64,000 nucleotides of DNA, taken from the IMG/VR virus record IMGVR_UViG_3300010162_000009, one strand, 5' to 3'. Below the pieces are notes generated by a model that saw nothing but the letters and a program-made list of their open reading frames with translations, did no database searches and was not told the origin of the DNA. Shown in pieces: positions 20,244 through 41,649 of this stretch. Position numbers and translations under genes: made by a program. How positions within the stretch are numbered: position 1 is the first letter of the stretch; each line of letters begins with the position of its first letter. The stretch is from a virus (lineage: Duplodnaviria; Heunggongvirae; Uroviricota; Caudoviricetes).

Positions 20244-21266
20244 ATGGGATATAAATTAGATACAAAAAAATGTATAGAGCGGTTTAATTCAATACATGGT
20301 AATGAAAAATACGATTATTCAAACGTTGTATATGTGAATCAAAACACTAAAGTAGAAATTACTTGTAAAATGTGTGGTAATATATTCAACCAAATACCAA
20401 AAAGTCATTTTATCGGAAAGGGTTGTCCAAACCCAATCTGCGTTGTTAAAAGATGTGTTAGAAGTAAAAAATACAATTACAAAAGGAAAATAAAAGGATA
20501 TGCACATACAACAGAAGAGTGGATTAAAATTGCAAAAAATATACATGGTAATAAATTTGATTACAGTAAAGTGGAATATGTTCATAATAAAATAGAAATA
20601 TGTATAATTTGCCCAATACATGGAGAATTTTTCACCAAACCAATCAGTCATTTAGAAACAACTTATGGTTGTAAAAAATGTTGGGAGGATGTTAAAAAAA
20701 AATTGTTTAATTTAGATAGGGATAAGTGGATTGAGATGGCAAAAAAAAGACATGGTAATAAATTTGATTATAGTAAGGTAGAATATGTAAATCAACATAA
20801 ACATGTTTGTATAATTTGTCCAATACATGGAGAATTTTATCAGAATCCAAATAATCATTTACGTGGAAGGGGTTGTGAAAAATGTAAAGGAGAAGATAAT
20901 ATTTATGAACAACGGTTATATAATGTTTTGAATAATGAATTACCAAATATAAAATGGGTTAGGAATTTCAGAGATAAATCATTGTTTGGAAATTTTGAAT
21001 TAGATTTTTATAATGATGAATATAAAATAGCAATTGAACATCAAGGTAGTCAACATTTTTTTCCTGTAAGACATTTTGGTGGTGTAAAAAAGTATAACGA
21101 AGTTGTTCAATGTGATATTTTAAAACATTCAATTTGCCAAAAAAATAATATAACTTTATTATATTTTGCATACGAAAAAATTAAAATACCTGAAGATTAT
21201 ATAGATATAGTATATCAAAAAGAAAGTGAATTAATAAATAATATAAAAATAATAATTAAAAATTAG
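20244..21266 (+). CDS. Zinc-ribbon repeat protein with a C-terminal nuclease-like domain ([21 protein letters not shown]); paralog of 2071-3552.
   Basis: Three HG(N/D)K(F/Y)DYSKVEYV...[10 protein letters not shown] repeats plus the shared C-terminal motif. Confidence 0.6.
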
Positions 21267-21274: not shown

Positions 21275-23239
21275 ATGAGTAATAAAATTATAGGTATAGA
21301 CCTTGGGACCACATCGTCATGTGTGTCGGTAATGGAAGGTGGTAAAGCAGTTGTAATACCAAACAGCGAAGGTAGAAATACCACACCTTCAGTGGTAGCA
21401 TTTTTAAAGGATGATGTATTAGTAGGCGATGCTGCTAAACGTCAAATGGTAACAAATGCAGAAAACACAGTGTATTCAATAAAACGTTTCATGGGGGAAA
21501 CTTACAGTTCATCTATAAAAGAACATGATAAAGTTTCGTACAAAATTGTAAAAGGTAATAACGATACTGTTCGTGTTAAGATTGGTGAACGCGAATTTAG
21601 TCCTCAAGAGATATCTGCAAGAGTCTTACAAAAAATGAAGAAGACGGCTGAAGATTATTTAGGACATGAAGTTACAAAATCTATCATAACTGTTCCAGCT
21701 TATTTCAACGATTCCCAACGTCAAGCAACCAAGGATGCTGCTGAAATAGCAGGATTAGAAGTTCTCAGAATCATCAACGAACCAACAAGTTGTGCTTTAT
21801 GTTTTGGATTGGATAAAGCTAAAGAAGATATGAAAATAGCAGTTTATGATCTGGGTGGGGGTACATTTGATATTTCAGTTCTATCATTGGGTTCCGGTAT
21901 TTTTGAGGTTTTATCTACCTCTGGGGATACGTTTCTTGGAGGTGACGACGTTGACCGTGTTATTATAAACTTCCTTGCTGATGAATTTCAGAAAGAATTT
22001 TCTTTGGATTTGAGAAAAGATCCTATGGCATTACAGCGGTTAAGAGAAGCAGCAGAAAAAGCAAAAATCGAATTATCCTCTTCTATTCAAACTGAAATCA
22101 ATCTACCATACATAATGCCGGTTGATGGTATCCCTAAACACCTTGTACAAACTATCACCCGCGCTAAATTTGAACAAATGATTTCAGATATTGTTCAACG
22201 CACCATTGAACCATGTAAAACCGCATTAAAAAGCGCAAATTTAACCATAAATGATATTGATGAAGTAATTCTTGTTGGTGGTAGTACACGTATTCCTGCT
22301 GTTCAAGATGCTGTTGAAAAATTCTTTGGTAAAAAACCGAACAAGAGTGTAAATCCGGATGAAGCAGTATCTTTGGGAAGTGCTATACAAGGGGCAATCC
22401 TCTCTGGTGAGGAGACTGATCTTCTTCTTTTAGACGTTACCCCATTATCACTTGGTATTGAAACTCTCGGTAGTGTATTCACGAAGTTGATTGAAGCAAA
22501 CACAACAATTCCTGTAGAAAAATCACAAATATTCAGTACGGCAGTTGATAATCAACCGGCAGTAACAATCAGGGTTGGACAAGGTGAGCGACCATCCTTT
22601 AATGATAATAAACTGTTAGGTATATTTGATTTGGATGGTATTCCACCAGCAAGGAGAGGTGTACCTCAAATTGAAGTAACATTCAGCATCGATGTGAATG
22701 GTATTATGTCCATTAAAGCAAAGGATAAAGGAACGAACAAGGAGCAGAGTATTACCATTCAATCTTCATCTGGTTTATCTTCCGAAGAGATTGAAAGAAT
22801 GAAGCGTGAGGCTGAAGAAAATGCTGACGCTGATAAGAAGAAAATGGAAAAGGTACATGCGTTGAATAAAGCAGATTCATTAATTTTCTCTACTGAAAAA
22901 CAATTTGAAGAGTTAGGTGATAAAGTTACCGAAGAAGATAAGTCAAAAATTCAACCAATAGTAGATGAACTGAAAGAAGTTCTAAAAAATCAGGAACATG
23001 AAAAGGTTGAAGATTTGTCGAAAAAGTTAGAGGAAGCGTGGATACCAATCAGCGCAAAATTATATGCGCAAAGTAATCCTGACGGTAATTCAAATCCATT
23101 TGCTAATATGGGTGGTAATCCTTTTGCTGGTGGAGATAATCCATTTAGTGGATTTGATTTCAGCAAAGGTGCGCCAAACCCTACCGATGATACCTCTGCA
23201 CCGGAATGGGCGGAAGAAGTAGATCCTGATAAAAAGTAG
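21275..23239 (+). CDS. dnaK: Molecular chaperone DnaK (Hsp70).
   Basis: Full-length Hsp70: [28 protein letters not shown], and substrate-binding and lid regions. Confidence 0.95.
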
Positions 23240-23327: not shown

Positions 23328-25145
23328 TTACTTTTTTCTTTTAAACGATTCTTTAGGAATTTGTCCTACGACAGTCCCATCTTGTTCAACGATATATAAT
23401 TTTTTACTCCTTGATTCAGTTTGCGCTTGTGGTTGTTGTGTTTGCATTGATTGCATTTGTGCTTCAAGATCATCTAATCTTTTGTTTTGTCTTGCACCTT
23501 GCATTCCAGGTGCAACCTTAGCACCCAAATAACCACTAACATAACCTTCTTCAATATTATCATCAACCACTTCAATTTCTACCGAACTAAAATTTTTAGG
23601 AGAGGAATTACCTGAATGTTTTCCAACTGTTGAATTTATTTTATCAAGAGTATCTTGATGGTGGTTTCCCAAACCTATTTCGCCATCCGCACTGACATCT
23701 TCAAAACTTGTTCTACCTTTTGAATCTGGTTCAACAGGACTATAACTGAATTTATCTTTTGTCACATCGGAAGCAACTGTATTAATAGTTTCTTTGACAA
23801 TTTTATCGACCATTCTTTTAATACTTTCGTTGAAATTCTTTTCACTATCCATATCGAAGATTCTCTTACCCATATCCTCATCATCGCCACTTCCCATCAT
23901 ACGATGAAAATCGTCATCGACATCAGATGTTCTATCATCGAATTCTTCTTCAGCAACAATTTGATCAATTTTTTCTTTCAATTTTTCTGCTATTTCATGG
24001 TAATCAAGATACTCTTCCTGATTTCTTAACCAACTGATTACAGCATTTTCAAATGAAACTTTATGTTCTTCTTGTTGTTTTGGTAAAGTATTATATTTAG
24101 TATTTAGTTTATCTGATAAAAATGCTTCGCTCAAACCACATTCTCCAACTTCGTCGCCACCTAAAAATTCTTCGTCATCTAAAGTTATTTCCTCTTCACC
24201 AGATTCACCATCTAACTTTTGTTCAATACTATTTAATTTATCCATTAAGGCGTTTAGAATATCCATTTCTTCTTCCATGTGGTCATCGGTTTCGACTTCA
24301 CCTTCTTCAAACTCATCGTCTAATTCCTCTTCGTCAGAAAATTCATCATCCAGATCAATTTCTTCTTCGTCACCGAACATTTCTTCGTCATCCAAACTTA
24401 TTTCGTCTTCTTCCGAACTCTCACCTGTAAGACCGCTGACAGTATCTCCAACAGCACCGGTAACACTGCTTGCGACATCGCCAACAGCATCAACAGCACC
24501 ACTGGCAACTTTACCAACACCTCTTGCAGCACTACCGATAGCACCACCAACAAGACCGAGAACTTCATTTACTTCACCTTCGTTTACACCATCGGTAAGC
24601 ACACCTTCTTTTTTATCACCAATTTTAACTTGTTCGTTTAAAGGTTTTCCCGCTCTCTTTTGAACACTTGTACTTCCTTTTGTTACTATCATGTTTGTAT
24701 TTTCCATAATCTCACGAATACGATCAATCTCACCACGCATTTCTTTTGTAGTTACAGTTTGTGCAAGATTAGTATCAACACGTTGTCTTTCTTCAACTAC
24801 CAATTCTTTTTTATTGATGTTTTCCGCAAGAGTAACTAATTCTTCTTTTAGAACTTTTTCCGCTTGATTATACGATTTATATTCATATAAACCTTTACAT
24901 TGACGATTTCCACCAAGATATTCAAAATCTTCCAATTTTAAATCCCTATCTTTAGTAGATGTTTTTAAATAGTATTTTGAATTTTCTTTAATAATAGCAT
25001 AAGAATTACCATCACAACCTTTATATACTCTTTCGATATTACCTAACGGTTGACTTACAGATTGTACTACATGAGTACTATTACCCATAAGATTTTGCAT
25101 CCTTTTTATGCTTTCTTCCACAGTTGCATAATTATTTCTATACAT
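23328..25145 (-). CDS. Acidic Gly/Ala-rich protein, 605 aa (AVGDVASSVTGAVGDTVSG, then poly-Asp/Glu). Candidate virion-internal or scaffold-like protein; permuted paralog of 56175-57569.
   Basis: Shared segments with 56175-57569 (EGEVNEV...GAAG...; GNSYAIIKENSKYYL vs GNEYLMECDNYNQSFILEYKNPEKL). ATAAATAG 33 bp upstream. Confidence 0.55.
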   Translation of the reverse strand: MYRNNYATVEESIKRMQNLMGNSTHVVQSVSQPLGNIERVYKGCDGNSYAIIKENSKYYLKTSTKDRDLKLEDFEYLGGNRQCKGLYEYKSYNQAEKVLKEELVTLAENINKKELVVEERQRVDTNLAQTVTTKEMRGEIDRIREIMENTNMIVTKGSTSVQKRAGKPLNEQVKIGDKKEGVLTDGVNEGEVNEVLGLVGGAIGSAARGVGKVASGAVDAVGDVASSVTGAVGDTVSGLTGESSEEDEISLDDEEMFGDEEEIDLDDEFSDEEELDDEFEEGEVETDDHMEEEMDILNALMDKLNSIEQKLDGESGEEEITLDDEEFLGGDEVGECGLSEAFLSDKLNTKYNTLPKQQEEHKVSFENAVISWLRNQEEYLDYHEIAEKLKEKIDQIVAEEEFDDRTSDVDDDFHRMMGSGDDEDMGKRIFDMDSEKNFNESIKRMVDKIVKETINTVASDVTKDKFSYSPVEPDSKGRTSFEDVSADGEIGLGNHHQDTLDKINSTVGKHSGNSSPKNFSSVEIEVVDDNIEEGYVSGYLGAKVAPGMQGARQNKRLDDLEAQMQSMQTQQPQAQTESRSKKLYIVEQDGTVVGQIPKESFKRKK

Positions 25146-25622: not shown

Positions 25623-28600
25623 TTACGATATTTTCTCTATAAGTTTTTCCAACCTTTCAATTCTATCAACCAAATTATCAACCATACTTAATGCGACAAC
25701 AGATAGTTTTGTATAATCAACTGCCAAAAACCCTTCCTCATTGGTTGTAACCAGTTCCGGACATATTTTTTGAACATCTTGTGCTATTACACCAATATGT
25801 TGTGTTTTTGTTTCATCATCGTTTAACTGATAGTAGATTTTCTTTAAATGTTTAAATGTTTCAATAGTATAATTTGAATCAACTTCTCCTGTTACTGTTT
25901 TTAAACGTGTATCCGATTCTTGGAAAAATCCACCTCCGGCATATATTCGCTGACTACCATCTCTAAATACTACCGAACTTGCAACACTACTTCCTGTTAC
26001 TGGACAAGCGGTTGGTACACCATTTGTAGCAAAGTAAATAGGTTGTATACCACTACCAAGTGCTCCTTGCCCTGTACCGTTACCTAAAACAAGTTGAGTA
26101 GCAGTAGCAGCAGTACCACTTGTTCCAAGTCTTGTTGCTGAACCGGCATTACCTGTTACTGTTGTTGGTGCCGCTGGCATAGTTAATGTACGTGCCGTTG
26201 CGGTAACTTGCCCGTTTGTTGCTTGACTTACTTGTGGTACAATAAATGTACCCCCATAAGTCAAGGTTGCGTTTGCAGCAGGTCCTGTTGCAGCAACCGC
26301 CGTAAATGTTGGGGCAGCTGGTGCCGCCGGCAGAGTCATTGCACGTGCCGTTGCAGTAAGTTGTCCGTTTGTAGCCTGACTCACTTGTAATACATTAAAG
26401 GATGCACCAAATGTCAAAGTTCTAGCAGCAGTCTCACCGGTATTTGATACGGCAGTTACTGATATTGTTGGAGCAGCTGGCATAGTCATTACTCTTGGAG
26501 TAATTGTCATTTGACCACCTGCTGCTTGTGATGCTTGCAGGACAGTAAATGTTCCTCCATAAGTTAAAGTTTTTGCAGCAGCTTCTCCACCACCTGTTAC
26601 CGCCGTAATAGCGGTACATGCTGTTGGAACACCGGCATTTAAATACATAGGTTGTGTCAACCCTCCAACCGTTCTTGTTGATGTTCTTAAATTACCATTC
26701 CCATCCGATGAGTCTACAACAATCATATTATACGCCGTCGATGAAACACCAGGAGTTATTTGTGTTGGAACACCAGCATTTAAATATATAGGTCTTTGTA
26801 CTGCGCCAACCGTACCCGGAGCATTTCCGTTACCTAATACAAGTTGTGTTGCAGTTGCTGCGGTTCCGGCTGTACCTAACCTTGTTGCTGAACCGGCATT
26901 ACCGGTTATTGTTGTTGGTGCGGCCGGCATGGTCATTGTATAACTTGTAGCTGCAACTTGTCCACCTGCAGCCTGACTTACACCAGGAACACTAAATGTA
27001 CCACCGAAAGTTAAAGTTGCGGCGGCAGAAGGACCTGCTGCTGCAACCGCATTAATTACAGGGAACGTTGCCAAAGAACCATCACCTCTTAAATACTGAG
27101 TGGCTGTTCCGAGTCCGCTGTGAGCGGTTATTGCATGACTTGCTGGGGCAAAAGTTGTGGGTTTATCCGTTATTTGTGCCCAAAGATGATCATGTGTAGT
27201 AGGTGTCATAGACGTTGGAAACGTTGCTAAAGAACCATCCCCCCTTAAATACTGCGCACTAGTTCCTAATCCGGTATGACTGTTCAAAGCATGACTTGCC
27301 GGAGCAAAAGTTGTTGGAACACCAGTAAGGTTACTATATGCCCAACTTGTTGGTCTGTCTGTAATGTTTGCCCAAGTATGATCGTGTGTTAGAGGCGCAT
27401 ATGCTGAAAATTGTAACTGTGTTCCTGACTTTGTAACCGCATTTCCACCAACTGTTGCCGATTGAATCGCTGTATCAACCTTCCCACCTTGCGTATTAAT
27501 CGCTGTCCACACGTCACTTAAATCCACGTTTGCACTAAACTCTTTCCACTCGAAGTCGAAACGATAAAATGCGTTGTCGCTGTTTCTGTTATGCCATAAA
27601 TCACCCAGAGTTTCTTCTACATTTGGTTTATTTACACCTTCAATACCATAAGTTGTATTTGCTGTTCCACTCCACGTTCCGTTATTAATAATATAACATG
27701 ACCAGAATGTGTCAGCAACTAAATTTGATATATTTTCTTGACTATTCACATACCATAATGTTCCGTTTCCGAACATTGTGTTTTGTGGTGTATTATCTGG
27801 CGGTGTCGCCGATATAATTCCGCGAAACCCGAAAAATCCACTTCCCATCGTGGATAACATTGTTTCCACCCACGATTTTCCGGTGGTTTCAGTCCATTTA
27901 CCATTTACTTGTGTTTGTAAATTATTAAGATCTGTCTGAGATGCGGCGTTATCCGCTTTTGTTCCCTGTGCAGCAGTAGCAAATGCGGCAGCATTTTGTA
28001 ATGCAGTATCTGCTTTTGCGCCTTGAGCTGCTGTAGCAAATTCGGCAGCATTTTGTAACGCGGTGTCTGCTTTAGCACCTTGTGCTGCTGTTGCGAAATC
28101 AGAAGGATTTAATTCATCAGGATACTCCGGAAATTCTAATACACCACCAGTTTTTGTAACAGCAAGACCACCAACAGTTGCAGACTGTACTGCACTATCT
28201 GCTTTTGCACCTTGAGCGGTGGTAGCGAATTCGGCAGCATTTTGTAACGCGGTGTCTGCTTTAGCACCTTGTGCTGAAGTTGCAAACCCTTCGCTTCTGT
28301 CTTTAAATTCGTTAAAACTTGTTTGAGTCGGAGCACTATCTGCTTTAGCACCTTGTGCTGATGTGGCGAACCCTTCGCTTCTATCTTTAAATTCGTCGAA
28401 ACTTGTTTTAGTTGCAAACGCTGATGCATCTTGTAACGCCGTATCTGCTTTTGCACCTTGAGCAGCAGTTGCAAACGCTGAAGCGTCTTGTAACGCTGTA
28501 TCTGCTTTTGCACCTTGAGCAGCAGTTGCAAACGCTGAAGCGTCTTGTAACGCTGTATCTGCTTTTGCGCCTTGCGCTGCGGTAGCGAATTGTGATGGAT

Positions 28601-28742
28601 CGATTTCCGGAATATCTATATTATCTGGAATGGTATCAACCATTTCTACAAGAACGTCTTGTAGAACGTCACCTTTAATCGCTTTACTGCTATTCTTGTA
28701 TATCTTACCTTTGATATACGTCTTTAGTTGTGTTAGTGTCAT
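25623..28742 (-). CDS. Tail fibre or tail spike protein, 1039 aa. N-terminal module shared with 43235-50005; about ten 18-aa FATAAQGAKADTALQDAS repeats; C-terminal peptidase-S74 intramolecular chaperone autoproteolysis domain.
   Basis: C-terminus ...SDTRLKTVTGEV...IGVIAQDVQKICPELV...LAVDYTKLSV matches the endosialidase/L-shaped-fibre chaperone domain signature. Repeats and shared module read directly from the translation. Confidence 0.75.
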   Translation of the reverse strand: MTLTQLKTYIKGKIYKNSSKAIKGDVLQDVLVEMVDTIPDNIDIPEIDPSQFATAAQGAKADTALQDASAFATAAQGAKADTALQDASAFATAAQGAKADTALQDASAFATKTSFDEFKDRSEGFATSAQGAKADSAPTQTSFNEFKDRSEGFATSAQGAKADTALQNAAEFATTAQGAKADSAVQSATVGGLAVTKTGGVLEFPEYPDELNPSDFATAAQGAKADTALQNAAEFATAAQGAKADTALQNAAAFATAAQGTKADNAASQTDLNNLQTQVNGKWTETTGKSWVETMLSTMGSGFFGFRGIISATPPDNTPQNTMFGNGTLWYVNSQENISNLVADTFWSCYIINNGTWSGTANTTYGIEGVNKPNVEETLGDLWHNRNSDNAFYRFDFEWKEFSANVDLSDVWTAINTQGGKVDTAIQSATVGGNAVTKSGTQLQFSAYAPLTHDHTWANITDRPTSWAYSNLTGVPTTFAPASHALNSHTGLGTSAQYLRGDGSLATFPTSMTPTTHDHLWAQITDKPTTFAPASHAITAHSGLGTATQYLRGDGSLATFPVINAVAAAGPSAAATLTFGGTFSVPGVSQAAGGQVAATSYTMTMPAAPTTITGNAGSATRLGTAGTAATATQLVLGNGNAPGTVGAVQRPIYLNAGVPTQITPGVSSTAYNMIVVDSSDGNGNLRTSTRTVGGLTQPMYLNAGVPTACTAITAVTGGGEAAAKTLTYGGTFTVLQASQAAGGQMTITPRVMTMPAAPTISVTAVSNTGETAARTLTFGASFNVLQVSQATNGQLTATARAMTLPAAPAAPTFTAVAATGPAANATLTYGGTFIVPQVSQATNGQVTATARTLTMPAAPTTVTGNAGSATRLGTSGTAATATQLVLGNGTGQGALGSGIQPIYFATNGVPTACPVTGSSVASSVVFRDGSQRIYAGGGFFQESDTRLKTVTGEVDSNYTIETFKHLKKIYYQLNDDETKTQHIGVIAQDVQKICPELVTTNEEGFLAVDYTKLSVVALSMVDNLVDRIERLEKLIEKIS
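28040..28600 (-). repeat. Intragenic tandem 54-bp (18-aa) repeats, including an exact ~60-bp duplication at 28441-28560.
   Basis: Repeated ctgcttttgcaccttgagcagcagttgcaaacgctgaagcgtcttgtaacgctgtat units. Confidence 0.7.
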
Positions 28743-28823: not shown

Positions 28824-29534
28824 ATGGCAATTACAACAAACGGAATAGGTACATTAACTGAACTTGGTAATAAAGGAGTAGGTTGGTTTAATGGTGCGAG
28901 TGGTCATCCCTCTCCAGGAGTCACTTCTTCACAATGTCCAATACAATCAATAATACAAAATAATCTGTATGGTAAGATTATAAATAATACTTATACTAAT
29001 ACTCAAATAGTTCGTTACAACGATGTAATTCCGGATAAATTTCCGGTTACTATATCATGTACAGGTTATGTTACATGTTCTTTAGCAGTTTATTTTTATT
29101 ATGGTCCAACTGGTTTTCTTAATGGAAGCAACTACCCAACTGGTGATTGTGAACAAGTTGGTGGAATTTCTGGTGGTACATACGGTTCATATGATTCAAA
29201 CAGATCTTTATTTAAAACAAACCTTGATCGAGCAAACCTTTATGGAATAGTTGTACAAAACACACATGCGGAAGGATCAAACAGATATTTTGATATAGAT
29301 TTAAAAATACATTCAAGAAGTATTGGAACTTCCGGCACACCTGGTAGTATCAATAATACCATACAAGATTATGTATATAATATACCTGTTCCATATATAA
29401 CTACAATCGGACCATCATCTCAGTGGGGTTATGTTGTTAATAAATTTCAACCGCTTCCGGCTAATATTGAACTTCATTTTACTACTTATGAAGGTGGTGG
29501 TGGAACAGGTTCTGGTGGAAGTGGTCCAACCTAA
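28824..29534 (+). CDS. Hypothetical Gly/Thr-rich protein, 236 aa; possible structural protein.
   Basis: ORF track; promoter motif upstream. Confidence 0.5.
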   Translation: MAITTNGIGTLTELGNKGVGWFNGASGHPSPGVTSSQCPIQSIIQNNLYGKIINNTYTNTQIVRYNDVIPDKFPVTISCTGYVTCSLAVYFYYGPTGFLNGSNYPTGDCEQVGGISGGTYGSYDSNRSLFKTNLDRANLYGIVVQNTHAEGSNRYFDIDLKIHSRSIGTSGTPGSINNTIQDYVYNIPVPYITTIGPSSQWGYVVNKFQPLPANIELHFTTYEGGGGTGSGGSGPT

Positions 29535-29545
29535 AATTAATTGTT

Positions 29546-30622
29546 ATGTTGAGAAGAATTCATATAATAGGATTACCTCATTTACCGGTTTCTGAATATT
29601 ATCAAACTTGTGCTTTTACACAAAAAATTATCAAGTTAATTAAACAATGTAAAATGTATAATCATGAAGTTTATCTTTATGGTATTAGTGCAAGTGACAA
29701 AGTAAAAACATTATGTGATAAATATTTTCAAGTATTACCATACGAAGAATTTTTAAATATAGAATATATAAACAACCTTAGTGGTTTAAATTTTATGAGT
29801 AATGGAAATCATGAATTTAATGAATTATTTGGTACAAGTGCGGGTAAATTAGTTCTTGAAAATAGAAGAACATTAGAAGATGTTGTATGTATTACACATG
29901 GTAGAATACAAAAATCTGTGACTGATGTAACTAAAAAACAAGTAATAGAAATAGAATCTGGTATCGGTTATATTGGAACGTATCTAAATAATAGGGTTTA
30001 TGAATCGTATATATGGATGCACACCATAGATTATACCGGGACTTCAAATGGGAACTCTTTATGGACTGTTATACCAAATTGCGTGGATACAGATGAAGAG
30101 TGGCAATACTCTGAAAACAAAGACAACTATCTTATTTTTATTGGTAGATTAATTCGCAACAAAGGTGTAAAACAAGCAATAGATGCTGCTACAAAACTAA
30201 AAACAAAAATAGTAATAATCGGTCAGGGTAATATTAATGAATTTGTTGATAAAGAAAATATTAAATATGTTGAATATTTAGGTGTTAAACAAGATATAAA
30301 AGAAAAATCAAGTTTGATTTCAAAAGCAAAATGCATGTTAGTCCCCACTCAATATATTGAACCATTTGGGACAGTTCATGTAGAATCATTATATTGTGGT
30401 ACACCTATTATTACATCAGATTATGGTGTTTTTGTCGAAACAAACATACATGGTGTTACTGGATATAGATACAGATTGTTTGATCAATTGCTTGAATGTA
30501 TAAATAATGTTGATGAAATTTCTCCTGTTGTTTGTAGAAAATATGCAGAAGATAATTTTACACTGTCTGTAACCGCAAAACAATATGATGAATATTTTAA
30601 AACTTTACGGATTTGTACTTAA
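29546..30622 (+). CDS. Glycosyltransferase, GT4 (GT-B) family.
   Basis: C-terminal E-x7-E-type motif IEPFGTVHVESLYCGTPIITSD and the preceding GRLIRNKG nucleotide-sugar-binding region. Confidence 0.65.
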   Translation: MLRRIHIIGLPHLPVSEYYQTCAFTQKIIKLIKQCKMYNHEVYLYGISASDKVKTLCDKYFQVLPYEEFLNIEYINNLSGLNFMSNGNHEFNELFGTSAGKLVLENRRTLEDVVCITHGRIQKSVTDVTKKQVIEIESGIGYIGTYLNNRVYESYIWMHTIDYTGTSNGNSLWTVIPNCVDTDEEWQYSENKDNYLIFIGRLIRNKGVKQAIDAATKLKTKIVIIGQGNINEFVDKENIKYVEYLGVKQDIKEKSSLISKAKCMLVPTQYIEPFGTVHVESLYCGTPIITSDYGVFVETNIHGVTGYRYRLFDQLLECINNVDEISPVVCRKYAEDNFTLSVTAKQYDEYFKTLRICT

Positions 30623-30826
30623 GTGAACTTTTTATAGTTTTATTCTCAAAAATTTATTTATAATAGAATTTGCAGCATCAGGTGATTTTATAGGATATCC
30701 AAATCCCAGTGTAGAATATCCTTTAAAATATTCTAATGGTTTATAATCTAATTCAGATGGTCTTTTTCCTGTTCTTTCAAATAATAGTTTATCTAATGTA
30801 TCATTCATATTATAATTGTCCTTTTA

Positions 30827-30980
30827 AAAAATGTCGTTGTTGGTACATCATATTACAATAGTCTTCAAAACACTTCGCAACAATCTTCTTAATCACCCTT
30901 TCAAAGTCGCGGTTTTCCAATTTCTTTTTGAACCACTTCTCAACATCGTCTTCATCCATGTAATCTTCACCTTTTGCCAT
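30827..30980 (-). CDS. Small hypothetical protein (~51 aa, MAKGEDYMDEDDVEKWFKKK...).
   Basis: Manual ORF; ATAAATAG 17 bp upstream. Confidence 0.3.
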
Positions 30981-30996
30981 CACATTTTTATTTAAT

Positions 30997-31004
30997 ATAA
31001 ATAG
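30997..31004 (-). promoter_or_regulatory. ATAAATAG motif upstream of small ORF 30827-30980.
   Basis: Exact motif. Confidence 0.4.
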
Positions 31005-31065
31005 AATGTTTTGAAATATGATATAATATATGTATCTTTTAATTGAAATAATAATTTAAAATAAT

Positions 31066-31404
31066 ATGAAAAGGGTAGTAAGATTAGGATCATTTGAAAC
31101 AAATTCCAGTTCAACACATTCTCTTAGTATTGTAACTAAGGAAGAATATGCTGCTTGGGAAAATGGGGAACTTTTTTTCAGTAACGACGAAGAGCGTTTA
31201 ATAACAGAAAGTGAAGTCAAAGAACTCTATGAAAAAGAGTTAAAAGAAGAACCAGACACAGACTTTGAAGAGTTTAGAGAAGATAATTTTCAAACATATG
31301 ATGAGTACTGGGACGAAGAGTATCTAGAAATATTCACACAAGAACACAAAACTAAAAGTGGTGACGAAATAGTTGTGTTCGGAAAATATGGTCAAGACGG
31401 TTAG
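31066..31404 (+). CDS. FETNSSS-H family protein (paralog 3), 112 aa.
   Basis: N-terminal RLGSFETNSSSTHSL. Confidence 0.5.
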   Translation: MKRVVRLGSFETNSSSTHSLSIVTKEEYAAWENGELFFSNDEERLITESEVKELYEKELKEEPDTDFEEFREDNFQTYDEYWDEEYLEIFTQEHKTKSGDEIVVFGKYGQDG

Positions 31405-31419
31405 GTTAGGTTGAAAAAA

Positions 31420-31456
31420 AAATGGGGTGTCTAATTTTTTAGACAACCCCATTTTA
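31420..31456. terminator. Bidirectional rho-independent terminator (ggggtgtcta/tagacaacccc) between convergent genes.
   Basis: Hairpin with flanking A and T runs. Confidence 0.55.
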
Positions 31457-31595
31457 TCATTATGAAAATTTTTAATTCAATGAAGAAAGTCAGTAAAAAT
31501 CCCCCATTGTGGTTTAATATCCTCTACGCACTCGGTCTATTGTTTTTTACAATTTGTGTTATGGCGTGGTTTACTTTTAGGTATTTACCAACACT

Positions 31596-32087
31596 TTAGT
31601 AGGCTAAGACGCAGTAGTCTGGTCTAATATTAAATGTTACTGTTGATATTTCATTAGACTTATAATCTAAACTACCAAAATCAACATCACCGTCTATCAT
31701 ACAATTAACCAATATCCATTTTTGAACAACAACTCCTGTTGGATCAAGCATTTCCAATTCACAATTACGTTTATAACCAGCAGCGTATCCTTGTCTACCA
31801 GTAACGCTTTCACTATGCAGACGAACCCATTCCATTACAGCTTGACTCGTTGAAGGTCCGATTGTTTCTCTCAATTCAACTTTAATTTGTTCCCATCTAT
31901 ATCTACCAACAACCCAAGTAGAGGTATTTAAAAATTCTATTTCTTGCACCGCCATATTAATTTTTGGTCTGCTAGCAGTTTTTACCCACCATTCTTGTAT
32001 TCCTAAATCCGATGGAAATCTTAGTAAGAAACGATTTTGTCTCAAAGGTTCGTAAACCAGCGGCATTTTTATCAATAAATCACTCAT
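31596..32087 (-). CDS. Tail tube protein, T4 gp19-like.
   Basis: 163 aa, the size of gp19. Segments NRFLLRF and IDGDVDFGSLDYKSNEISTVTFNIRPDYCV parallel the gp19 N- and C-terminal conserved blocks as I recall them. Confidence 0.5.
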   Translation of the reverse strand: MSDLLIKMPLVYEPLRQNRFLLRFPSDLGIQEWWVKTASRPKINMAVQEIEFLNTSTWVVGRYRWEQIKVELRETIGPSTSQAVMEWVRLHSESVTGRQGYAAGYKRNCELEMLDPTGVVVQKWILVNCMIDGDVDFGSLDYKSNEISTVTFNIRPDYCVLAY

Positions 32088-32129
32088 ATTGCAATATAAT
32101 ATTTAATATTATTCTTTTTTCTTTTGTTA

Positions 32130-32137
32130 ATAAATAG
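32130..32137 (-). promoter_or_regulatory. ATAAATAG motif upstream of 31596-32087.
   Basis: Exact motif, 43 bp upstream. Confidence 0.4.
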
Positions 32138-32188
32138 TATCTTTTTAAAAAATTCATAATTTTGTAGATCGAAATTTTATTTTTATAT

Positions 32189-32842
32189 ATGAATGGGTTG
32201 ATAACATATAATAATCAGTCGGCAACAATTGCTCTACCCCATAATAAATATGTGGATAGGGTTTTGGGTAGTAATTCTTTTGAAGAGTTATGGTGGAGAT
32301 TTAAGGGTGCTGATAGTCCGAGTAAAGAAATAAGTGAAAGTTATGCAGCATTTTCAAATTTAAAAAAACAATGTATTATCAAAGATTATTCATGGTTACA
32401 TATAGGTGATGGTGCATATACAAGAACAGCAGCAATATTTACTTTTTTCAGTAAAACAAAAAATTATTCTGTCGACCCACTAATTAACGAAGAGAGATTT
32501 CACCTGTGGAGAGAAAAATATGATGTTCAAAATATACATATATCAAAAACTAAATTTGAAAATTTTGAACATGATTTTAAATCACCTTACGGAATAACAT
32601 GTGTACACGCTCATGTAGATTTAGAAGATGTGGATAAAAAATTTCCGGATTGGGCGTTTTTATACACAAATGCCTGTTGTTTTCCTACCAAACAAATGTT
32701 TAGTCAAAAATATATGTTGGAAAATAAAATCATCAAAATGATAGATAAATATGATTTGGGAATAACAGGACACGAAAGGCGAATAGTAGTGTACAAAAAC
32801 ACGCGGTTTCGTGATAAAAATGGAAATATCATTTATTTATAA
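32189..32842 (+). CDS. Hypothetical protein, 217 aa.
   Basis: ORF track. Confidence 0.5.
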   Translation: MNGLITYNNQSATIALPHNKYVDRVLGSNSFEELWWRFKGADSPSKEISESYAAFSNLKKQCIIKDYSWLHIGDGAYTRTAAIFTFFSKTKNYSVDPLINEERFHLWREKYDVQNIHISKTKFENFEHDFKSPYGITCVHAHVDLEDVDKKFPDWAFLYTNACCFPTKQMFSQKYMLENKIIKMIDKYDLGITGHERRIVVYKNTRFRDKNGNIIYL

Positions 32843-32999
32843 TATAAAACCAATTTAAACTTATGTATTCTAAAAGTTTTGATCAAATGTTTCAAGAATT
32901 ACTTGCAAGTGCGGGTGCTGTTCTTATTGTTGTCGCTGTGTTGTTTGTAGGATTAGTTGTATACAAACTAATCAAAAGTAGAAAGAAATGGTAAAATCT

Positions 33000-33392
33000 T
33001 TACTCGTTTTTAATACCTTTTGTTTTTTTCCACTTATTAACAGTATCGTCTAAAGCCACGTTAGGTTTTTTTGCAATTCCAATATAATCAGAATATAATT
33101 TTAATATATTTTCACTATCATTAGGATTATGTCTTATTGCTTCTTTTATTTCCATTTGTAATAATATTCGATAGTTTTCAACTATATTATGATTTAGGTT
33201 ATTAATAACTTCTATTTGTAAAGTTGTTTCTTCTCCGAGTTTTTCCAATAATGTTATCTGTGATTTGAATATTGGATCAAAAACTTCATTTAAAGTTTTT
33301 TTGGGGCGTTTGAACATAACAATAAGAAACCCTACCGATACTATTAGTAATAGGAGAAACCAAAGTGTTGTTACTGACTCATGCGTTATCAT
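33000..33392 (-). CDS. Single-pass membrane protein (paralog of 33379-33894).
   Basis: Start trimmed to the internal Met before the TM segment. Shared NI.KLYSDY and WKK motifs with its neighbour. Confidence 0.45.
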   Translation of the reverse strand: MITHESVTTLWFLLLLIVSVGFLIVMFKRPKKTLNEVFDPIFKSQITLLEKLGEETTLQIEVINNLNHNIVENYRILLQMEIKEAIRHNPNDSENILKLYSDYIGIAKKPNVALDDTVNKWKKTKGIKNE

Positions 33393-33894
33393 TGTTATTG
33401 GTTTTTTTCTTGTTTTTACTTGTGTGTTCAGCAACCTTATGTTCAACAACTTTATCAACAGAAGGATATTTTCCTGCTTCCCAATCTTTCATCAATTTAT
33501 CCACATAGGAATTACCCCCCATTTCTTTATAGGTCTGATATAACTTATAAATATTTGGTTCGTTTTCGGATCTGTGATCCATAGCAGATATAATTTCTAA
33601 TCGCAACAGAGTTCGGTTTATGTTTTTAAACTCATCATTTATCTTACCAAATGAATTTATACTTTTAGTATTAATATCATTAAGTTGTTCTAGAATCTTA
33701 TTATTGATTTCGAGTGTTTTGTACAAAGACGAATTTTTACTAAGATCATCAACATTTATCAATGATGCCATATTTGTGGCAATATTTGTTCTTATTTTCC
33801 TAAATAGTGCTGCCAGCCCACCTATTACAACAATCGCCGAAGATAAAATAGCAAAAATATCCGTTATACTCAAATTCAAATCTTGCATTTCCAT
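33379..33894 (-). CDS. Single-pass membrane protein, 171 aa; ATAAATAG 12 bp upstream.
   Basis: N-terminal TM segment; paralogous to 33000-33392. Confidence 0.5.
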   Translation of the reverse strand: MEMQDLNLSITDIFAILSSAIVVIGGLAALFRKIRTNIATNMASLINVDDLSKNSSLYKTLEINNKILEQLNDINTKSINSFGKINDEFKNINRTLLRLEIISAMDHRSENEPNIYKLYQTYKEMGGNSYVDKLMKDWEAGKYPSVDKVVEHKVAEHTSKNKKKTNNNDNA

Positions 33895-33905
33895 TCTCTT
33901 TCTAA

Positions 33906-33913
33906 ATAAATAG
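33906..33913 (-). promoter_or_regulatory. ATAAATAG motif upstream of 33379-33894.
   Basis: Exact motif. Confidence 0.45.
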
Positions 33914-33971
33914 GGGGGTTTAAAATTTTTGTTTATTTAGTATTGTTCTAATTTTGTAGTAGATATAAATA

Positions 33972-34614
33972 TTAAGATTCAACCAGAACCCTATTCTGAA
34001 TGTTATTTTTCAGTTCTTGTAATGACATTGGGCGATATTCGTTTCGCTCAACACAAACATTATAATGGTTATTTGTATATTCAAATGGTTTTTCATGGGT
34101 ATGACCAAAAAAATGTTTCATACCATGATACTGTCCTGAATAATGTACTTGTGGATAATGGTCAAGCAGATAACGTTCATCATTGTAACGAAGTTCCAAT
34201 CTTTCCCTTATCAGAAACAATTTATCCATTCTTGTAACCTCTAACCTATCACCGGAATGTCGTTCAATTAGTTTGTATTGTTCGGATAACTTTTGTAATG
34301 TTTTTGGGTGATCATGATTTCCTTTTATGAGAACTTGATAACCATTAAGTTTTCCTATCAGTTTTGACCAAATAACAGGACTCTCTGACCAACAAAAATC
34401 ACCAAGATTGAATACAATATCATCTTCTTTGACAACCCTATTCCAATTATCAACCAATGTCTTTGTCATATCATCAATATCAGAGAATGGTCGGTTGCAT
34501 AACTTTATAATGTTAGTGTGGAACATGTGAAGGTCGGATACAAACCATATATCCTCAGGATCACCTTCTATTTCCAAATAACCGTATTTGAATAATTTTT
34601 TGATATATACCATA
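33972..34614 (-). CDS. Calcineurin-like metallophosphatase.
   Basis: Motifs VSDLHMFH, LGDF, GNHDHP and GHTH. Start trimmed to MVYIKK. Confidence 0.7.
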
Positions 34615-34668
34615 ATATTATGTATTATTAGATTCAAATGTATAGTAAAAATTTTAAAAAATAAAGTT

Positions 34669-35184
34669 ATGTTGAGCATTATAGTCGCAATGGATGTGAA
34701 TAACGGTATAGGTGCGAACAACCAACTGTTATGTCATTTACCGAATGACCTAAAAAATTTCAAGGAATTAACGACTGGTAATACAGTTATCATGGGTAGG
34801 AAAACATATGAATCCTTACCCGAAAAATTCCGACCACTACCTAATAGGGAAAATGTTGTTATATCTCAAACATTAACCGAAATACCGGGTTGCACAGTTT
34901 TATCTTCTATAAAAGATGTTATAATGTATATAGCACCTCCAGGTAGAACAAAATTAACAAGTGATAAACAATATTTCGTAATAGGTGGTGGAACAATATA
35001 TGATGAATTGTTACCACTAACACAAAAATTATATATTACGAGAATTTATCACATGTTTGAAGAAGCGGATACATTTTTTCCGGAAATCAATCCTGACGAA
35101 TGGGAATTACAATCATCAGCAAGACATAAAAAAGATGAAAAACACGCATACGAATATTCCTTTGAAACGTATATCAGACTCTAA
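34669..35184 (+). CDS. folA: Dihydrofolate reductase.
   Basis: MLSIIVAMDVNNGIG..LPW-like region, IMGRKTYESLP and VIGGGTIY motifs. Start trimmed to the ATG at 34669. Confidence 0.85.
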   Translation: MLSIIVAMDVNNGIGANNQLLCHLPNDLKNFKELTTGNTVIMGRKTYESLPEKFRPLPNRENVVISQTLTEIPGCTVLSSIKDVIMYIAPPGRTKLTSDKQYFVIGGGTIYDELLPLTQKLYITRIYHMFEEADTFFPEINPDEWELQSSARHKKDEKHAYEYSFETYIRL

Positions 35185-35290
35185 CGAGAAGTTACCACTC
35201 GTTATTCTTTCAATTTATGCAATTGGTTATGTTTTGTGGATTTCTTTGTTGTGTGTATATTTAGGGTAGAAAAATTTTAAAAATAATATC

Positions 35291-35971
35291 ATGGATTTTA
35301 CAGAAGTTGATTTAACCAAAGACATAATTGAAACATATGACGAATACGTCAAATTGTTGGAAAAAGGAATTGATGACCTTATTGGGTTAGCAGTAGCACA
35401 CGGTTATACCGGAAATGAAACCGATTATCACGAAGGTATCCGATTAAGAGCAAAAATTCAAGAACTAAAAAACGCTATTGAAAAAGAAGATGAAATAACA
35501 GGTAATGGTTTAGTACAAAATTATTTGGATTCTATGGAACTATCATCTTTTAAGCGTCATGTCATAGAACTGTTGGATGATAGTTATATAGAAGTATTAT
35601 CATATTTTTCATACCCTTCTTGTGTTAGGCGTGTTATATTATCAACCAATGTTAATTATAAAACACCAGAACATGATTGGTTAACAGCATTTGCAGAAAA
35701 AATGTTTTATGAGGTGTTACCAAGATATAATATTTTCATTGATAATAAAATTGCAATAAAAATCAAACCAAGAAATCCGAATATCAAAGAATCGGAAGAT
35801 AATTGTTCAATGTGGTTTGGTAGTAAGGATGGGCAATATTATATTGGATTAAATGCTGAGAATATGGATGGTTTCCCTATTAGAATAGCAAATCTAAAAA
35901 AAAGGAAAGAATTGTTTGAAGTAGATGTTGAAAATATTGAAAATGAGGGGGATTATGACAACCTCCAGTAA
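35291..35971 (+). CDS. Hypothetical protein, 226 aa.
   Basis: ORF track. Confidence 0.5.
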   Translation: MDFTEVDLTKDIIETYDEYVKLLEKGIDDLIGLAVAHGYTGNETDYHEGIRLRAKIQELKNAIEKEDEITGNGLVQNYLDSMELSSFKRHVIELLDDSYIEVLSYFSYPSCVRRVILSTNVNYKTPEHDWLTAFAEKMFYEVLPRYNIFIDNKIAIKIKPRNPNIKESEDNCSMWFGSKDGQYYIGLNAENMDGFPIRIANLKKRKELFEVDVENIENEGDYDNLQ

Positions 35972-35976
35972 ATAAT

Positions 35977-36996
35977 ATGTCTAAAAAAAAATTACTTTGT
36001 TTAACATGTGACACTGTGTTCACACAACATCCACCAAAACCCTGTAAAAATTGTGGTGGAAAGGTTGTTTTGTGGGAACCAACCCCAATTAAAATAATAC
36101 CAAAAATAGAGGAATATAATAAAAAATTGATAAGTGAACAATATGAAAAATTGATTACAGAAGTACAGTCTATATCCTCACATGTTGAAATAGTATCAAA
36201 TCATATTTTTAATCTTATTAAAGAAAATCCTAATTTAACAAAAATTGAAAATGTAGATTTTATTGGTTCAGCTGATATAGAACTTAAAGCAGTTGATTTT
36301 AGTAATAATATTCAATTTAAAGGTTTTTCTGGTAATTCTGATTACACAAATAATAAAGAAAAAGTATACATTTATAACAATCAAATATATGGTATAGAAT
36401 TTTATATAGAATATGCAACTGAAAATGGTGAAATTGTTGATAATAATATATTAGATATGATATATCATGAGATACAACATGCTTATCAAGATTACTGTAA
36501 GTTGTTGGGTGGAGTAGATATTTATGAATTACCAAAAAACAAATTGTATAATTTTGCTCTTGAATATTACGGTTCTAAAAATTATTATTTACATAATTTT
36601 TCTAATATATTATATATGGCAAATGATGGGGAACAAGACTCTTTCATAAATCAACTATATTCTTCGTTGAAATATAATGAACATATAAATAAATTTAACA
36701 TATATAGTTATTATCACACAAATGAAGCATATCTTAGATTACAAAATTTATTGAAATTAAAAGAAGAAATACCACAGTGGAATGAAAATAGTGAATTATT
36801 TTTTTATATGGAAACCGCTTTAATGCAATATGGTATAAAATTCACCAAAAGTGAAATTATTAAATTACTTAAAAATACCATCGTAAGATATAGTAGAAAA
36901 CTAAAAAAGATGTTTGCAAAAATCATGATGGAAAAAAATATAACTGAACATATTTCAATTAGTAGAAGAAATCCAAAATTTGTTAAAAATGAGTAA
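35977..36996 (+). CDS. Hypothetical protein with an N-terminal zinc ribbon, 339 aa.
   Basis: CLTCDT...CKNCGG. Confidence 0.5.
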   Translation: MSKKKLLCLTCDTVFTQHPPKPCKNCGGKVVLWEPTPIKIIPKIEEYNKKLISEQYEKLITEVQSISSHVEIVSNHIFNLIKENPNLTKIENVDFIGSADIELKAVDFSNNIQFKGFSGNSDYTNNKEKVYIYNNQIYGIEFYIEYATENGEIVDNNILDMIYHEIQHAYQDYCKLLGGVDIYELPKNKLYNFALEYYGSKNYYLHNFSNILYMANDGEQDSFINQLYSSLKYNEHINKFNIYSYYHTNEAYLRLQNLLKLKEEIPQWNENSELFFYMETALMQYGIKFTKSEIIKLLKNTIVRYSRKLKKMFAKIMMEKNITEHISISRRNPKFVKNE

Positions 36997-37195
36997 AATA
37001 ATTAAAGACGGAAAACTCCCGAAAGAATATAAAAATGTTATTACCGTAACATGTAATAGGTGTGAGACTGTTTTTGAAGAAGAACAATCTAATTGTGAAT
37101 ATATTACAAAAATACAGGTTATGTGTACGTGTCCACATTGTCACTATAAAATTTTAGCGGAACAGAATTTTAAAAGTGTACCTTATTATGAGTGA
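36980..37195 (+). CDS. Small zinc-ribbon protein, 71 aa.
   Basis: CNRCE...CTCPHCH. Confidence 0.4.
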   Translation: MLKMSKIIKDGKLPKEYKNVITVTCNRCETVFEEEQSNCEYITKIQVMCTCPHCHYKILAEQNFKSVPYYE

Positions 37196-38120
37196 GAGGA
37201 ATAAAACCATAATATTATCTGAATCGCAGATAGAAGAATATTCTAAACGCTGTGTTACAACCCCATTTGCACACAGCATTAGTAATCAAATTCTTTGTTA
37301 TAACACGTTTGAAATATTACCTATAATTTCAAATGAAATATTTGATTTGATAATAATCGATCCGCCATTTAATTTAAATAAGACTTTCAATGAATTGTCA
37401 TTTAAAAAAATGGGGTTTAACGATTATATAGAATATCTTAATTCATTTTTGAAGGATTGTGCAAGAATATTAAAACCTCATGGAACATTGTATTTGTGTG
37501 GTGATTGGAAATCATCATCTGCAATGCAAATAGCGTTATCTATGGCGAATCTTCACATTCAAAATAGAATAACATGGTCACGTGATAAGGGTCGTGGAAA
37601 CAAATCAAACTTCAAAAACAATATGGAGGATATATGGTTTGCAACAAAACACCAAACACAATATACCTTCAATGTTGAAAGTATTAAGATAAAGAAAAAG
37701 GTAATCGCACCATACAGAGACGCGGAAGGTAATAAAAGAGATTGGGAAAAAACCGAAGATGGTAAAAAATGGAGATTAACATATCCTTCAAATATTATTA
37801 CGAATTGTACCGTACCGTATTGGTCAATGGCAGAAAATACTGAACACCCAACACAAAAACCAGAAAAACTAATAGCAAAACTGATATTAGCATCTTCTAA
37901 TGAAGGTGATTTTGTTCTTGATCCATTCAATGGTTCAGGTACAACTACGGTAGTTGCATCAAAACTTGATAGAAGATATTGTGGTATCGAACTCGATAAA
38001 AAGTATTGCGCACTTGCACAATATAGATTGGAACGCGCACAAACAGATAAACGTATTCAAGGATATGATAGCGAAGAAAAATGTTTTTTAGAAAGAAATT
38101 ATAACGATAATAGGGCATGA
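37176..38120 (+). CDS. DNA methyltransferase, beta-class (motif IV DPPF precedes motif I FNGSGTT); probably N6-adenine.
   Basis: IIDPPF and DPFNGSGTT motifs. Confidence 0.85.
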   Translation: MYLIMSERNKTIILSESQIEEYSKRCVTTPFAHSISNQILCYNTFEILPIISNEIFDLIIIDPPFNLNKTFNELSFKKMGFNDYIEYLNSFLKDCARILKPHGTLYLCGDWKSSSAMQIALSMANLHIQNRITWSRDKGRGNKSNFKNNMEDIWFATKHQTQYTFNVESIKIKKKVIAPYRDAEGNKRDWEKTEDGKKWRLTYPSNIITNCTVPYWSMAENTEHPTQKPEKLIAKLILASSNEGDFVLDPFNGSGTTTVVASKLDRRYCGIELDKKYCALAQYRLERAQTDKRIQGYDSEEKCFLERNYNDNRA

Positions 38121-38276
38121 AAAGACTTTGTAAAGTAGTTTGCCGTAGTTGTAAAAAAAGATATGGTTCTGAAGATTTGTACAAACGTTGTAAATCTTGT
38201 GGTTGTGAAATCATTCTGAGATGGGAGGATGGTATTAAACCACCACCAAGAAGAAGAACTTTCGGAATGTCGTAAA
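38118..38276 (+). CDS. Small zinc-ribbon protein (~52 aa, CRSCKKRY...CKSCGC).
   Basis: Manual ORF; ATGA overlap with the methyltransferase. Confidence 0.3.
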
Positions 38277-38346
38277 ATTAACTACTGCAAACACTGTTAT
38301 TATCTAACTTTTTTACAGTTTACAATAGCATTTGCAATTGTTATTT

Positions 38347-39417
38347 TCACCTCCTAGAACCACCACTAGATGATGAAGATGTGGATGTAGAGGTTGTTGA
38401 ACTACTTCTACTACTTGTTGATGGTGCAGTGTAAGTACTACTAGAACTACTCCTGCTACTACTTGATGGTGTACTGTAACTTGGAGTAGAAGAACTTCTC
38501 GTACTATTAGTAGTACTACGTGCAGGTGTACTTGTTACTGTTGTATTTGAACGATTTGTATTTGTTGGTGTGGAATAAGTAGTCGAACTTCTATTACTAC
38601 TGGTAGTTGTACTAACATTTGTACGATTATTATTGTTTGGTGGTTGTACCGTTGTTGTTGTCGTTGTTGTTCGTGAACTTGTCGATGTGGTAGTTGGCGT
38701 ACTTCTGGTATATGTTTGTTGTGGTGTACGAGTGTACGTTGGTTGAGAACTAGTACTACGAGTTGAACTTACCGTTGTTGAAGTTGTGCGAGAACTACTA
38801 CTTGGTGTTGCCGTACTTCGTACCACTGTACTTGTTGAACTTGTTCTGGTAGGTGTATTATACCTACTCGAAGAATATAAAGGACTGCTGCTTCTACGAT
38901 TAACTGGTCCCGCTATTGTTGTCCTATTCGGATATGATCTCGGATAATAGTATACAGGATAGTATACTCTTGGATAATAATATGGGTAATAGTGGTGTGG
39001 ATAATAAAATCTAGGATGGTAGTATGGATAAAAGAATGGATCCCATGCGTATCTGTAATACCATGGGGTGTAATACCACGGATTATAATAACCAAAACTA
39101 AATGTTATTCCAATACCATTAAATCTATTGAATCTCGCAGCATACGAAAAATCATAATCGTAATTATTGTAGTAGTTGTTAGTTACATAAACATTGGTTT
39201 GTTGTGGTTGAGATTCTTGATACATTACGTATCTCTCGTAGTTACTCATTTCCCTTGCCGGTTCAGCGTAACTGTTTGCTGCGACATAAGATACTGAAGT
39301 AGTTCTGTTTGGATTGTAGTAAATATCATCGTCAAACTTGGATTGGGATATTAGTTTGTTGGATGAACATGCTGTCCCTATGACAACAATCGCTAAAAAT
39401 GTGATTATCTTTTTCAT
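38347..39417 (-). CDS. Lipoprotein with Tyr/Pro-rich repeats (YYPYYHPRFYYPHHYYPYYYPRVYYP) and a Ser/Thr-rich C-terminal half.
   Basis: Lipobox GTAC-S after the signal peptide; extreme compositional bias; ATAAATAG 17 bp upstream. Confidence 0.6.
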   Translation of the reverse strand: MKKIITFLAIVVIGTACSSNKLISQSKFDDDIYYNPNRTTSVSYVAANSYAEPAREMSNYERYVMYQESQPQQTNVYVTNNYYNNYDYDFSYAARFNRFNGIGITFSFGYYNPWYYTPWYYRYAWDPFFYPYYHPRFYYPHHYYPYYYPRVYYPVYYYPRSYPNRTTIAGPVNRRSSSPLYSSSRYNTPTRTSSTSTVVRSTATPSSSSRTTSTTVSSTRSTSSQPTYTRTPQQTYTRSTPTTTSTSSRTTTTTTTVQPPNNNNRTNVSTTTSSNRSSTTYSTPTNTNRSNTTVTSTPARSTTNSTRSSSTPSYSTPSSSSRSSSSSTYTAPSTSSRSSSTTSTSTSSSSSGGSRR

Positions 39418-39433
39418 GGCATTGGGGTTTTAT

Positions 39434-39441
39434 TATAAATA
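39434..39441 (-). promoter_or_regulatory. ATAAATAG motif upstream of 38347-39417.
   Basis: Exact motif. Confidence 0.45.
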
Positions 39442-39464
39442 GTAGAACAAAACCTATGCCAAAC

Positions 39465-39986: not shown

Positions 39987-40042
39987 AATTTTGTATATGT
40001 TAAATTTGTTAAAAAATTAAAATGATTGTCATTTTATATACA

Positions 40043-41643: not shown

Positions 41644-41649
41644 CTTATT

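Follow-up and report, generated by a model that had tools for sequence, protein, structure and literature searches.

The window analyzed here, a 64,000-nt stretch of a Caudoviricetes virus (IMG/VR record IMGVR_UViG_3300010162_000009; all coordinates are those of the window), encodes two large fibre proteins, here designated fibA and fibB, that share a composite N-terminal part of up to 450 a.a. (hereafter the head-end) and carry unrelated distal parts. Both genes were delimited from their open reading frames (ORFs) and translations:

25623-28742, minus strand: fibA, 1039 a.a.
43235-50005, minus strand: fibB, 2256 a.a.

From the N- to the C-terminus, fibA is composed of an anchor, a long repeat array, a globular domain, a connector, Ala/Gly/Thr-rich repeats, and a C-terminal S74 intramolecular chaperone, while fibB is composed of an anchor, three repeats, a globular domain, a connector, and 41 Kelch-like blades. 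The four pieces held in common are thus the anchor peptide, an array of FATAAQGAKAD repeats, a globular domain of 145 a.a., and a short connector, located as follows:

28593-28742, minus strand: fibA anchor peptide, a.a. 1-50 (MTLTQLKTYIKGKIYKNSSKAIKGDVLQDVLVEMVDTIPDNIDIPEIDPS), 92% a.a. identity to a.a. 1-50 of fibB
49856-50005, minus strand: fibB anchor peptide, a.a. 1-50, identical to the first 50 a.a. of a chimeric fibre protein, P0040 (described below)
27930-28592, minus strand: fibA repeat array, a.a. 51-271, nine FATxAQGxKAD motifs in 19-a.a. and 28-a.a. units
28116-28226, minus strand: internal copy of the connector in the fibA array, a.a. 173-209
49658-49855, minus strand: fibB repeat array, a.a. 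51-116, three FATxAQGxKAD motifs
27495-27929, minus strand: fibA globular domain, a.a. 272-416, 81% a.a. identity to the fibB domain
49223-49657, minus strand: fibB globular domain, a.a. 117-261
27393-27494, minus strand: fibA connector, a.a. 417-450 (TQGGKVDTAIQSATVGGNAVTKSGTQLQFSAYAP), end of the shared region
49121-49222, minus strand: fibB connector, a.a. 262-295, end of the shared region

Sharing between the N-terminal parts of the two genes had been pointed out in a preliminary description of this sequence, and it is real. BLASTP aligned a.a. 1-147 of fibA with a.a. 1-121 of fibB (72% identity with gaps, E 3e-54) and a.a. 210-448 of fibA with a.a. 46-293 of fibB (73% identity, E 2e-117). 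Compared without gaps, the anchors (a.a. 1-50) are 84% identical at the DNA level, and the 435-nt core of the globular domain is 80% identical. The globular domain is not repetitive, so the similarity extends beyond low-complexity repeats. By blastn, the similarity begins ~21 nt 5′ of the ATG, with 86.9% identity over nt 1-244 of the two genes and 75.5% over a 674-nt stretch holding the domain; the DNA identity of about 85% given earlier for the shared parts therefore applies to the first ~250 nt and is too high for the domain (75-80%). The boundaries proposed at the same time (27400 and 49130) lie near the measured ends of the shared region (~27393 in fibA and ~49121 in fibB), and beyond the connector the two proteins diverge. 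The number of repeats does differ between the genes, with nine FATxAQGxKAD motifs in fibA against three in the N-terminal part of fibB, although the unit detected by Tandem Repeats Finder is 57 nt (19 a.a., not 18 as first described), accompanied by an 84-nt (28-a.a.) variant. The connector, with the pattern TQGGKVDTA.Q....GG..V.K.G..LQ...Y, recurs within fibA and separates the propeller blocks in fibB from one another.

Judging from their sequences, the 5′ ends of fibA and fibB are paralogous and go back to an old duplication. Nei-Gojobori counting between the two genes gave a synonymous divergence (dS) of 1.19 and a nonsynonymous divergence (dN) of 0.044 for the anchor (dN/dS 0.037), and values of 0.92 and 0.13, respectively, for the globular domain (dN/dS 0.14). 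Given a dS of ~0.9-1.2 with dN/dS ratios of 0.04 and 0.14, the duplication is old, with both copies under purifying selection and kept functional. The repeat arrays of the two genes share exact tracts of 103, 81, 59, and 36 nt, of which three are located as follows:

28253-28355, minus strand: 103-nt tract, fibA nt 388-490, the same as fibB nt 226-328 (49678-49780); the longest exact tract
28510-28568, minus strand: 59-nt tract, fibA nt 175-233, the same as fibB nt 175-233 (49773-49831); junction of contigs L006 and L012 (below)
28441-28476, minus strand: 36-nt tract, fibA nt 267-302, the same as fibB nt 153-188 (49818-49853); junction of contig L004 (below)

At a per-site identity of ~84%, an identical run of 103 nt would arise by chance with a probability near 1e-8 (our own arithmetic), which indicates that the arrays have exchanged sequence recently, or continue to do so. 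Several public contigs end or begin at the edges of the 103-nt tract.

Beyond the connector, the two fibres are unrelated: fibA continues as an Ala/Gly/Thr-rich fibre ending in an S74 domain, whereas fibB is a Kelch-like propeller array. This bears out the earlier suggestion that the distal parts are swapped. The chaperone of fibA was assigned from a Pfam match together with a sequence motif:

25746-25916, minus strand: S74 chaperone domain of fibA (PF13884 match and SDTRLK motif)

The match to Peptidase_S74 (PF13884) covers a.a. 943-999 (E 7e-10; 39.5 bits against a gathering cut-off of 22), and the domain opens with SDTRLK (a.a. 943-948), an S-D-x-R-x-K motif that we take to be the Ser/Lys dyad motif of S74 chaperones. 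The C-terminal part of fibA was also matched by tail-fibre PHROGs. The body of fibA (26001-28000) has a G+C content of 0.446, against ~0.31 elsewhere in the window (~31% for the window), which could be due to its Ala/Gly/Thr-rich composition or to a foreign origin of the distal part. In fibB, which has Kelch and beta-propeller Pfam matches and no S74 domain, we counted 41 blades of ~41 a.a. each (43361-49018, minus strand), grouped in six blocks of ~seven that are set apart by short connector copies of the form K.G..L.FP.YP.

When 1.84 billion representative proteins were scanned in full by HMMER with a profile of the globular domain, only 11 matched. These include P0040, which is nearly identical to fibA, and P0041 (691 a.a.), which combines the same anchor with two repeats, the globular domain, and ‘phage tail repeat’ (PTR) units; like fibA, both end in an S74 domain with the S-D-x-R-x-K motif. 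A further group, P0042-P0048, carries the domain in an N-proximal position with unrelated N-termini and unrelated distal regions, and in all homologues the domain is N-proximal and lies upstream of a variable distal region. A close relative of P0042 is encoded on a metagenome contig (L001) directly after terminase, tail, baseplate-wedge, and baseplate-hub genes. The anchor is rarer than the domain, occurring beyond fibA and fibB in P0040, P0041, and P0002, the last of which (232 a.a., on a 942-nt ENA contig) consists of the anchor, one repeat, a connector, ~four blades, and a fibB-like C-terminus and has no globular domain. Given that the anchor occurs without the domain (P0002) and the domain with unrelated ends (P0042-P0048), the head-end is made of separable bricks and is not one domain. 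The preliminary notion of one common attachment module holds insofar as relatives join the pieces to other distal domains; it fails insofar as these same proteins split the anchor from the domain, and the earlier interpretation as a whole is partly supported.

At the N-terminus of two unrelated IMG/VR proteins of fibre-like character (L052, 1804-5073, and L096, 7983-9872), the anchor occurs in a less strict form (..LK.YI...I..N...AITGN.LQ.VL), and the two then share a region of the form G.ATPST.P...FY.A...G.Y.NF. This region was considered as a distant relative of the globular domain and rejected (hhalign probability <3%). A tblastn match of the anchor to the 124-a.a. ORF downstream of fibA (32% identity, E 0.14) was weak and was treated as chance.

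Fibre-like proteins of phages and bacteria commonly contain the FATxxQGxKAD repeat. In a word-index protein search, nearly all hits to a.a. 1-300 of fibB were proteins with this repeat; the domain profile gave one match and the anchor profile none. The shared region had no match among INPHARED phage records (blastn and tblastn) and none in Pfam at E ≤ 0.05; no PHROG family covered the shared N-terminal part of fibA or fibB at E ≤ 0.01, and a.a. 1-300 of fibB had no match among PDB sequences at E ≤ 1. A 26-mer from the anchor had no exact occurrence in IMG/VR or in GTDB species genomes, the exact fibA and fibB proteins were not found in the contig index, and a literature search found no mention of the repeat peptide.

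The globular domain itself showed no significant match in Pfam, PHROG, PDB, or BFVD. An alignment of 10 sequences revealed invariant F, G, P, G.LW.V, W.C, W, Y, P...E, W, and N positions, and an AlphaFold2 model based on this alignment (mean predicted local distance difference test score of 76; ~85-95 per decile for residues ~40-130) has two helices at its N-terminus and then a beta structure of seven strands. A Foldseek comparison of the model returned nothing significant in PDB (E ≥ 0.08) or BFVD (E ≥ 1.3e-3, TM ≤ 0.31). By sequence and predicted fold, the domain is thus an orphan, an undescribed family with no recognizable relative; as the model is a monomer of a probably trimeric fibre, the claim is limited to this and we do not speak of a new fold.

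The two head-ends, both on the minus strand, are direct repeats whose start codons lie exactly 21,263 nt apart. Neither this arrangement nor a public contig that lacks the intervening 21,263 nt and carries a chimeric fibre gene had been mentioned in the preliminary description. The unit between the start codons is as follows:

28743-50005, no strand assigned: 21,263-nt unit with fibB and ~20 further genes; absent from contig L004, closed contig in L006 and L012

Besides fibB, its cargo (28824-43223) includes a GT1 glycosyltransferase (29546-30622), a DHFR, two N6/N4 DNA methyltransferases, a small protease-like protein (42236-42646), and a multi-pass membrane protein (42651-43223). None of the available Pfam and PHROG labels, which cover part of the ORFs in the unit, denotes an integrase, a replication initiator, or a packaging gene.

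The contig without this cassette, L004 (ENA ERZ27257304 k141_684241, 180 kb), consists of window positions 60005-50006 joined to 28476-15623, both 100% identical and with nothing between them. Its gene order is the prohead protease, a 1001-a.a. fibre (P0040), a 124-a.a. gene, and a 605-a.a. gene. P0040 comprises the first 50 a.a. of fibB followed by the fibA body with two 19-a.a. repeats fewer, and its gene switches from fibB to fibA inside the 36-nt tract common to fibB repeat 1 and fibA repeat 3. This protein was found on two contigs of different size classes, one of 0.2-1 Mb, a size indicative of a jumbo phage.

The complementary junction is seen on two other contigs, L006, from the same assembly as L004 (21,404 nt, i.e., 21,263 + 141), and L012, from a second assembly (21,281 nt), whose fibB variant of 2215 a.a. 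has one 123-nt blade fewer. In both, the region upstream of fibA together with fibA nt 1-174 passes into fibB, from its nt 234 on, by way of the identical 59-nt tract, and their coordinates imply a terminal overlap of 141 nt. Such an overlap is expected from an assembler with a k-mer length (k) of 141 on a closed path. The arrangement of the window is represented as well: L020 and L021 run from the protease through fibB nt 328, L013 runs from a 236-a.a. gene to fibA nt 333, and L101 starts at fibA nt 227 and continues past the gene end. Contigs of several assemblies are interrupted at the tracts common to the two genes (fibB nt 180, 218, and 328; fibA nt 178-204, 227, 333, and 388).

By analogy with phages that carry multiple receptor-binding proteins (RBPs) with conserved N-terminal anchors, the head-end is probably the proximal or attachment part of the fibre, given its N-terminal position and its strong constraint alongside the freedom with which it is joined to various distal parts. 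The position of the domain homologue on L001, directly after baseplate genes, provides further context for such a role. Among the bricks, the first 50 a.a. are most likely the attachment element. The same head-end would let two different distal structures mount on the same kind of particle site. In addition, head-ends of the same orientation 21,263 nt apart appear to serve as direct repeats for homologous recombination, which is the simplest reading of the junctions. An exchange within the repeat array would remove the cassette, including the propeller fibre, and leave the fibB-anchor/fibA-body chimera of L004, while the complementary junction on the self-closing contigs, with the fibA anchor and the fibB body, would represent an excised circle or a tandem duplication. 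An intramolecular crossover would yield a deletion genome and a circle; an unequal crossover between genome copies would yield a deletion and a tandem duplication, the latter with the same novel junction as the circle.

On balance, we lean towards this overall account, in which the composite head-end is both the common proximal part of the fibres and the recombination substrate for the 21-kb cassette. We regard it as fairly likely that the deletion and circle junctions reflect actual molecules. A bolder proposal, for which we hold rather modest expectations, is that the paired anchors constitute a built-in recombination switch, whereby the population, by crossing over in the FATAAQGAKAD repeat tracts, would continually yield genomes with and without the cassette, each with an intact anchor-bearing fibre gene, thus hedging its host range.

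Several points weigh against the favored account. No described anchor domain (e.g., Phage_T7_tail PF03906, gp10-like) matches the shared region, and fibB directly follows the intein-containing prohead protease gene and is not among tail genes, so a head or other particle location is possible. The remaining points concern the junctions, which are known from short-read metagenome assemblies alone, where a multi-k assembler could mis-join at repeats. It is conceivable, if somewhat doubtful, that the shared module is real and that the assembler created the deletion and circular contigs by taking wrong paths through common repeat tracts, with only the two-fibre genome existing. In several assemblies, many contigs are interrupted precisely at the tracts held in common, so the assembly graphs were tangled there; with identities to the window of 99.98-100% for all contigs, the samples probably represent one population and are not independent; and the deletion junction differs by two 57-nt units from an exact reciprocal of the circle junction. 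Set against this, the junction tracts (36 and 59 nt) and even the longest exact tract (103 nt) are shorter than the k of 141, so junction-spanning k-mers should need real reads. The hybrid P0040 was also found on two contigs of different size classes, and the circle junction recurs in the second assembly on the cassette variant with one blade fewer and so is not a copied contig.

Two further explanations concern the function of the domain and the nature of the cassette. The globular domain and repeats may be a shared host- or glycan-binding knob, with attachment provided by the first ~50 a.a. only or by another protein; this would suit the separability of anchor and domain (P0042-P0048 versus P0002) and the predominance of aromatic residues, Asn, and Asp (F, W, Y, N, D) among the invariant positions, such residues being common in sugar-binding sites. 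As the domain is N-proximal in all homologues, a placement more typical of proximal or shoulder domains, and has no lectin or carbohydrate-binding module match by sequence or fold, we consider a binding knob rather unlikely. Alternatively, the 21-kb unit could be an autonomous mobile element (an episome or satellite) that has its own fibre gene and integrates by homology with the resident anchor. Such an element would be consistent with the closed contigs in two assemblies (21,263 nt with the k-mer overlap added) and with the cassette-free phage contig in one of them, yet the recognized genes, within the label scope stated above, include no integrase, replication initiator, or packaging gene, the G+C content of the unit resembles that of the rest of the window, and a tandem duplication by unequal crossing-over explains the circle junction equally well. 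A mobile element seems very improbable to us.

Sharing of conserved N-terminal anchor or adapter domains among several RBPs of one phage has been described for Klebsiella phage tailspikes and the jumbo Alcyoneusvirus phages RaK2 and phiK64-1 (PMC6872550, PMC10253068, PMC12692247). The fibre genes of the window resemble these systems in having a conserved N-terminal part, unrelated distal domains, and exchange at the boundary. They differ in that the head-end matches no described RBP anchor by sequence or profile and is a composite of a peptide, a variable repeat array, an orphan domain, and a connector. In T-even phages, the distal tail-fibre genes 37 and 38 recombine at conserved ‘His boxes’. 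Here, too, short conserved tracts in fibre genes would act as crossover points for chimeric fibres; unlike the His boxes, the tracts lie in two paralogues of the same genome 21 kb apart, and a crossover would therefore also delete or duplicate a whole gene cassette and not only swap the adhesin tip. Like known S74 fibres (endosialidase type, PF13884), fibA, P0040, and P0041 end in that chaperone, whereas fibB lacks it, the S74 domain being confined to the non-shared distal part of fibA.

The flanks of the fibre region encode a portal protein, homing endonucleases, an HSP70/MreB-like protein, HSP20, an eIF-1A-like protein, thymidylate synthase, and a tetratricopeptide repeat (TPR)-histidine kinase protein. 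Part of this cargo is unusual for a phage (58085-60421, minus strand; 21275-23239, plus strand; and L004), namely the protein with TPR, HisKA, and HATPase_c domains, the 654-a.a. HSP70/MreB-like protein, HSP20, and the small eIF-1A-like protein. Two HNH/homing-endonuclease genes (phrog_559/681; 2071-3552 and 20244-21266, both plus strand) are related to each other, and one adjoins the portal gene. The prohead protease gene (Peptidase_S77; 50021-51832, minus strand) ends 15 nt before fibB and is interrupted by an intein, with a Hint domain from a.a. 96 (CYTPDT...), LAGLIDADG_3 at a.a. 248-319, and the S77 match resuming at a.a. 458-567. Two genes past fibA, in a block that opens with the prohead protease, lies a gene for an extremely acidic protein of 605 a.a. 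(23328-25145, minus strand) with no family match, which may be scaffold-like.

Phages that keep one anchor and exchange the distal parts are already known in principle; the sequence families described here are new and unannotated. The two genes show clearly how, in nature, large phages assemble fibres from interchangeable pieces, and they define two undescribed sequence families, the 50-a.a. anchor peptide and the orphan 145-a.a. proximal domain. Of greatest interest is the cassette, which lies between the two anchors and is absent from a contig that is identical in other respects. Provided that the junctions are real, the common attachment end would double as a recombination site through which a receptor-binding cassette is added or dropped while an intact fibre gene is always left, and this would bear on the evolution of host range and on the design of swappable fibres.

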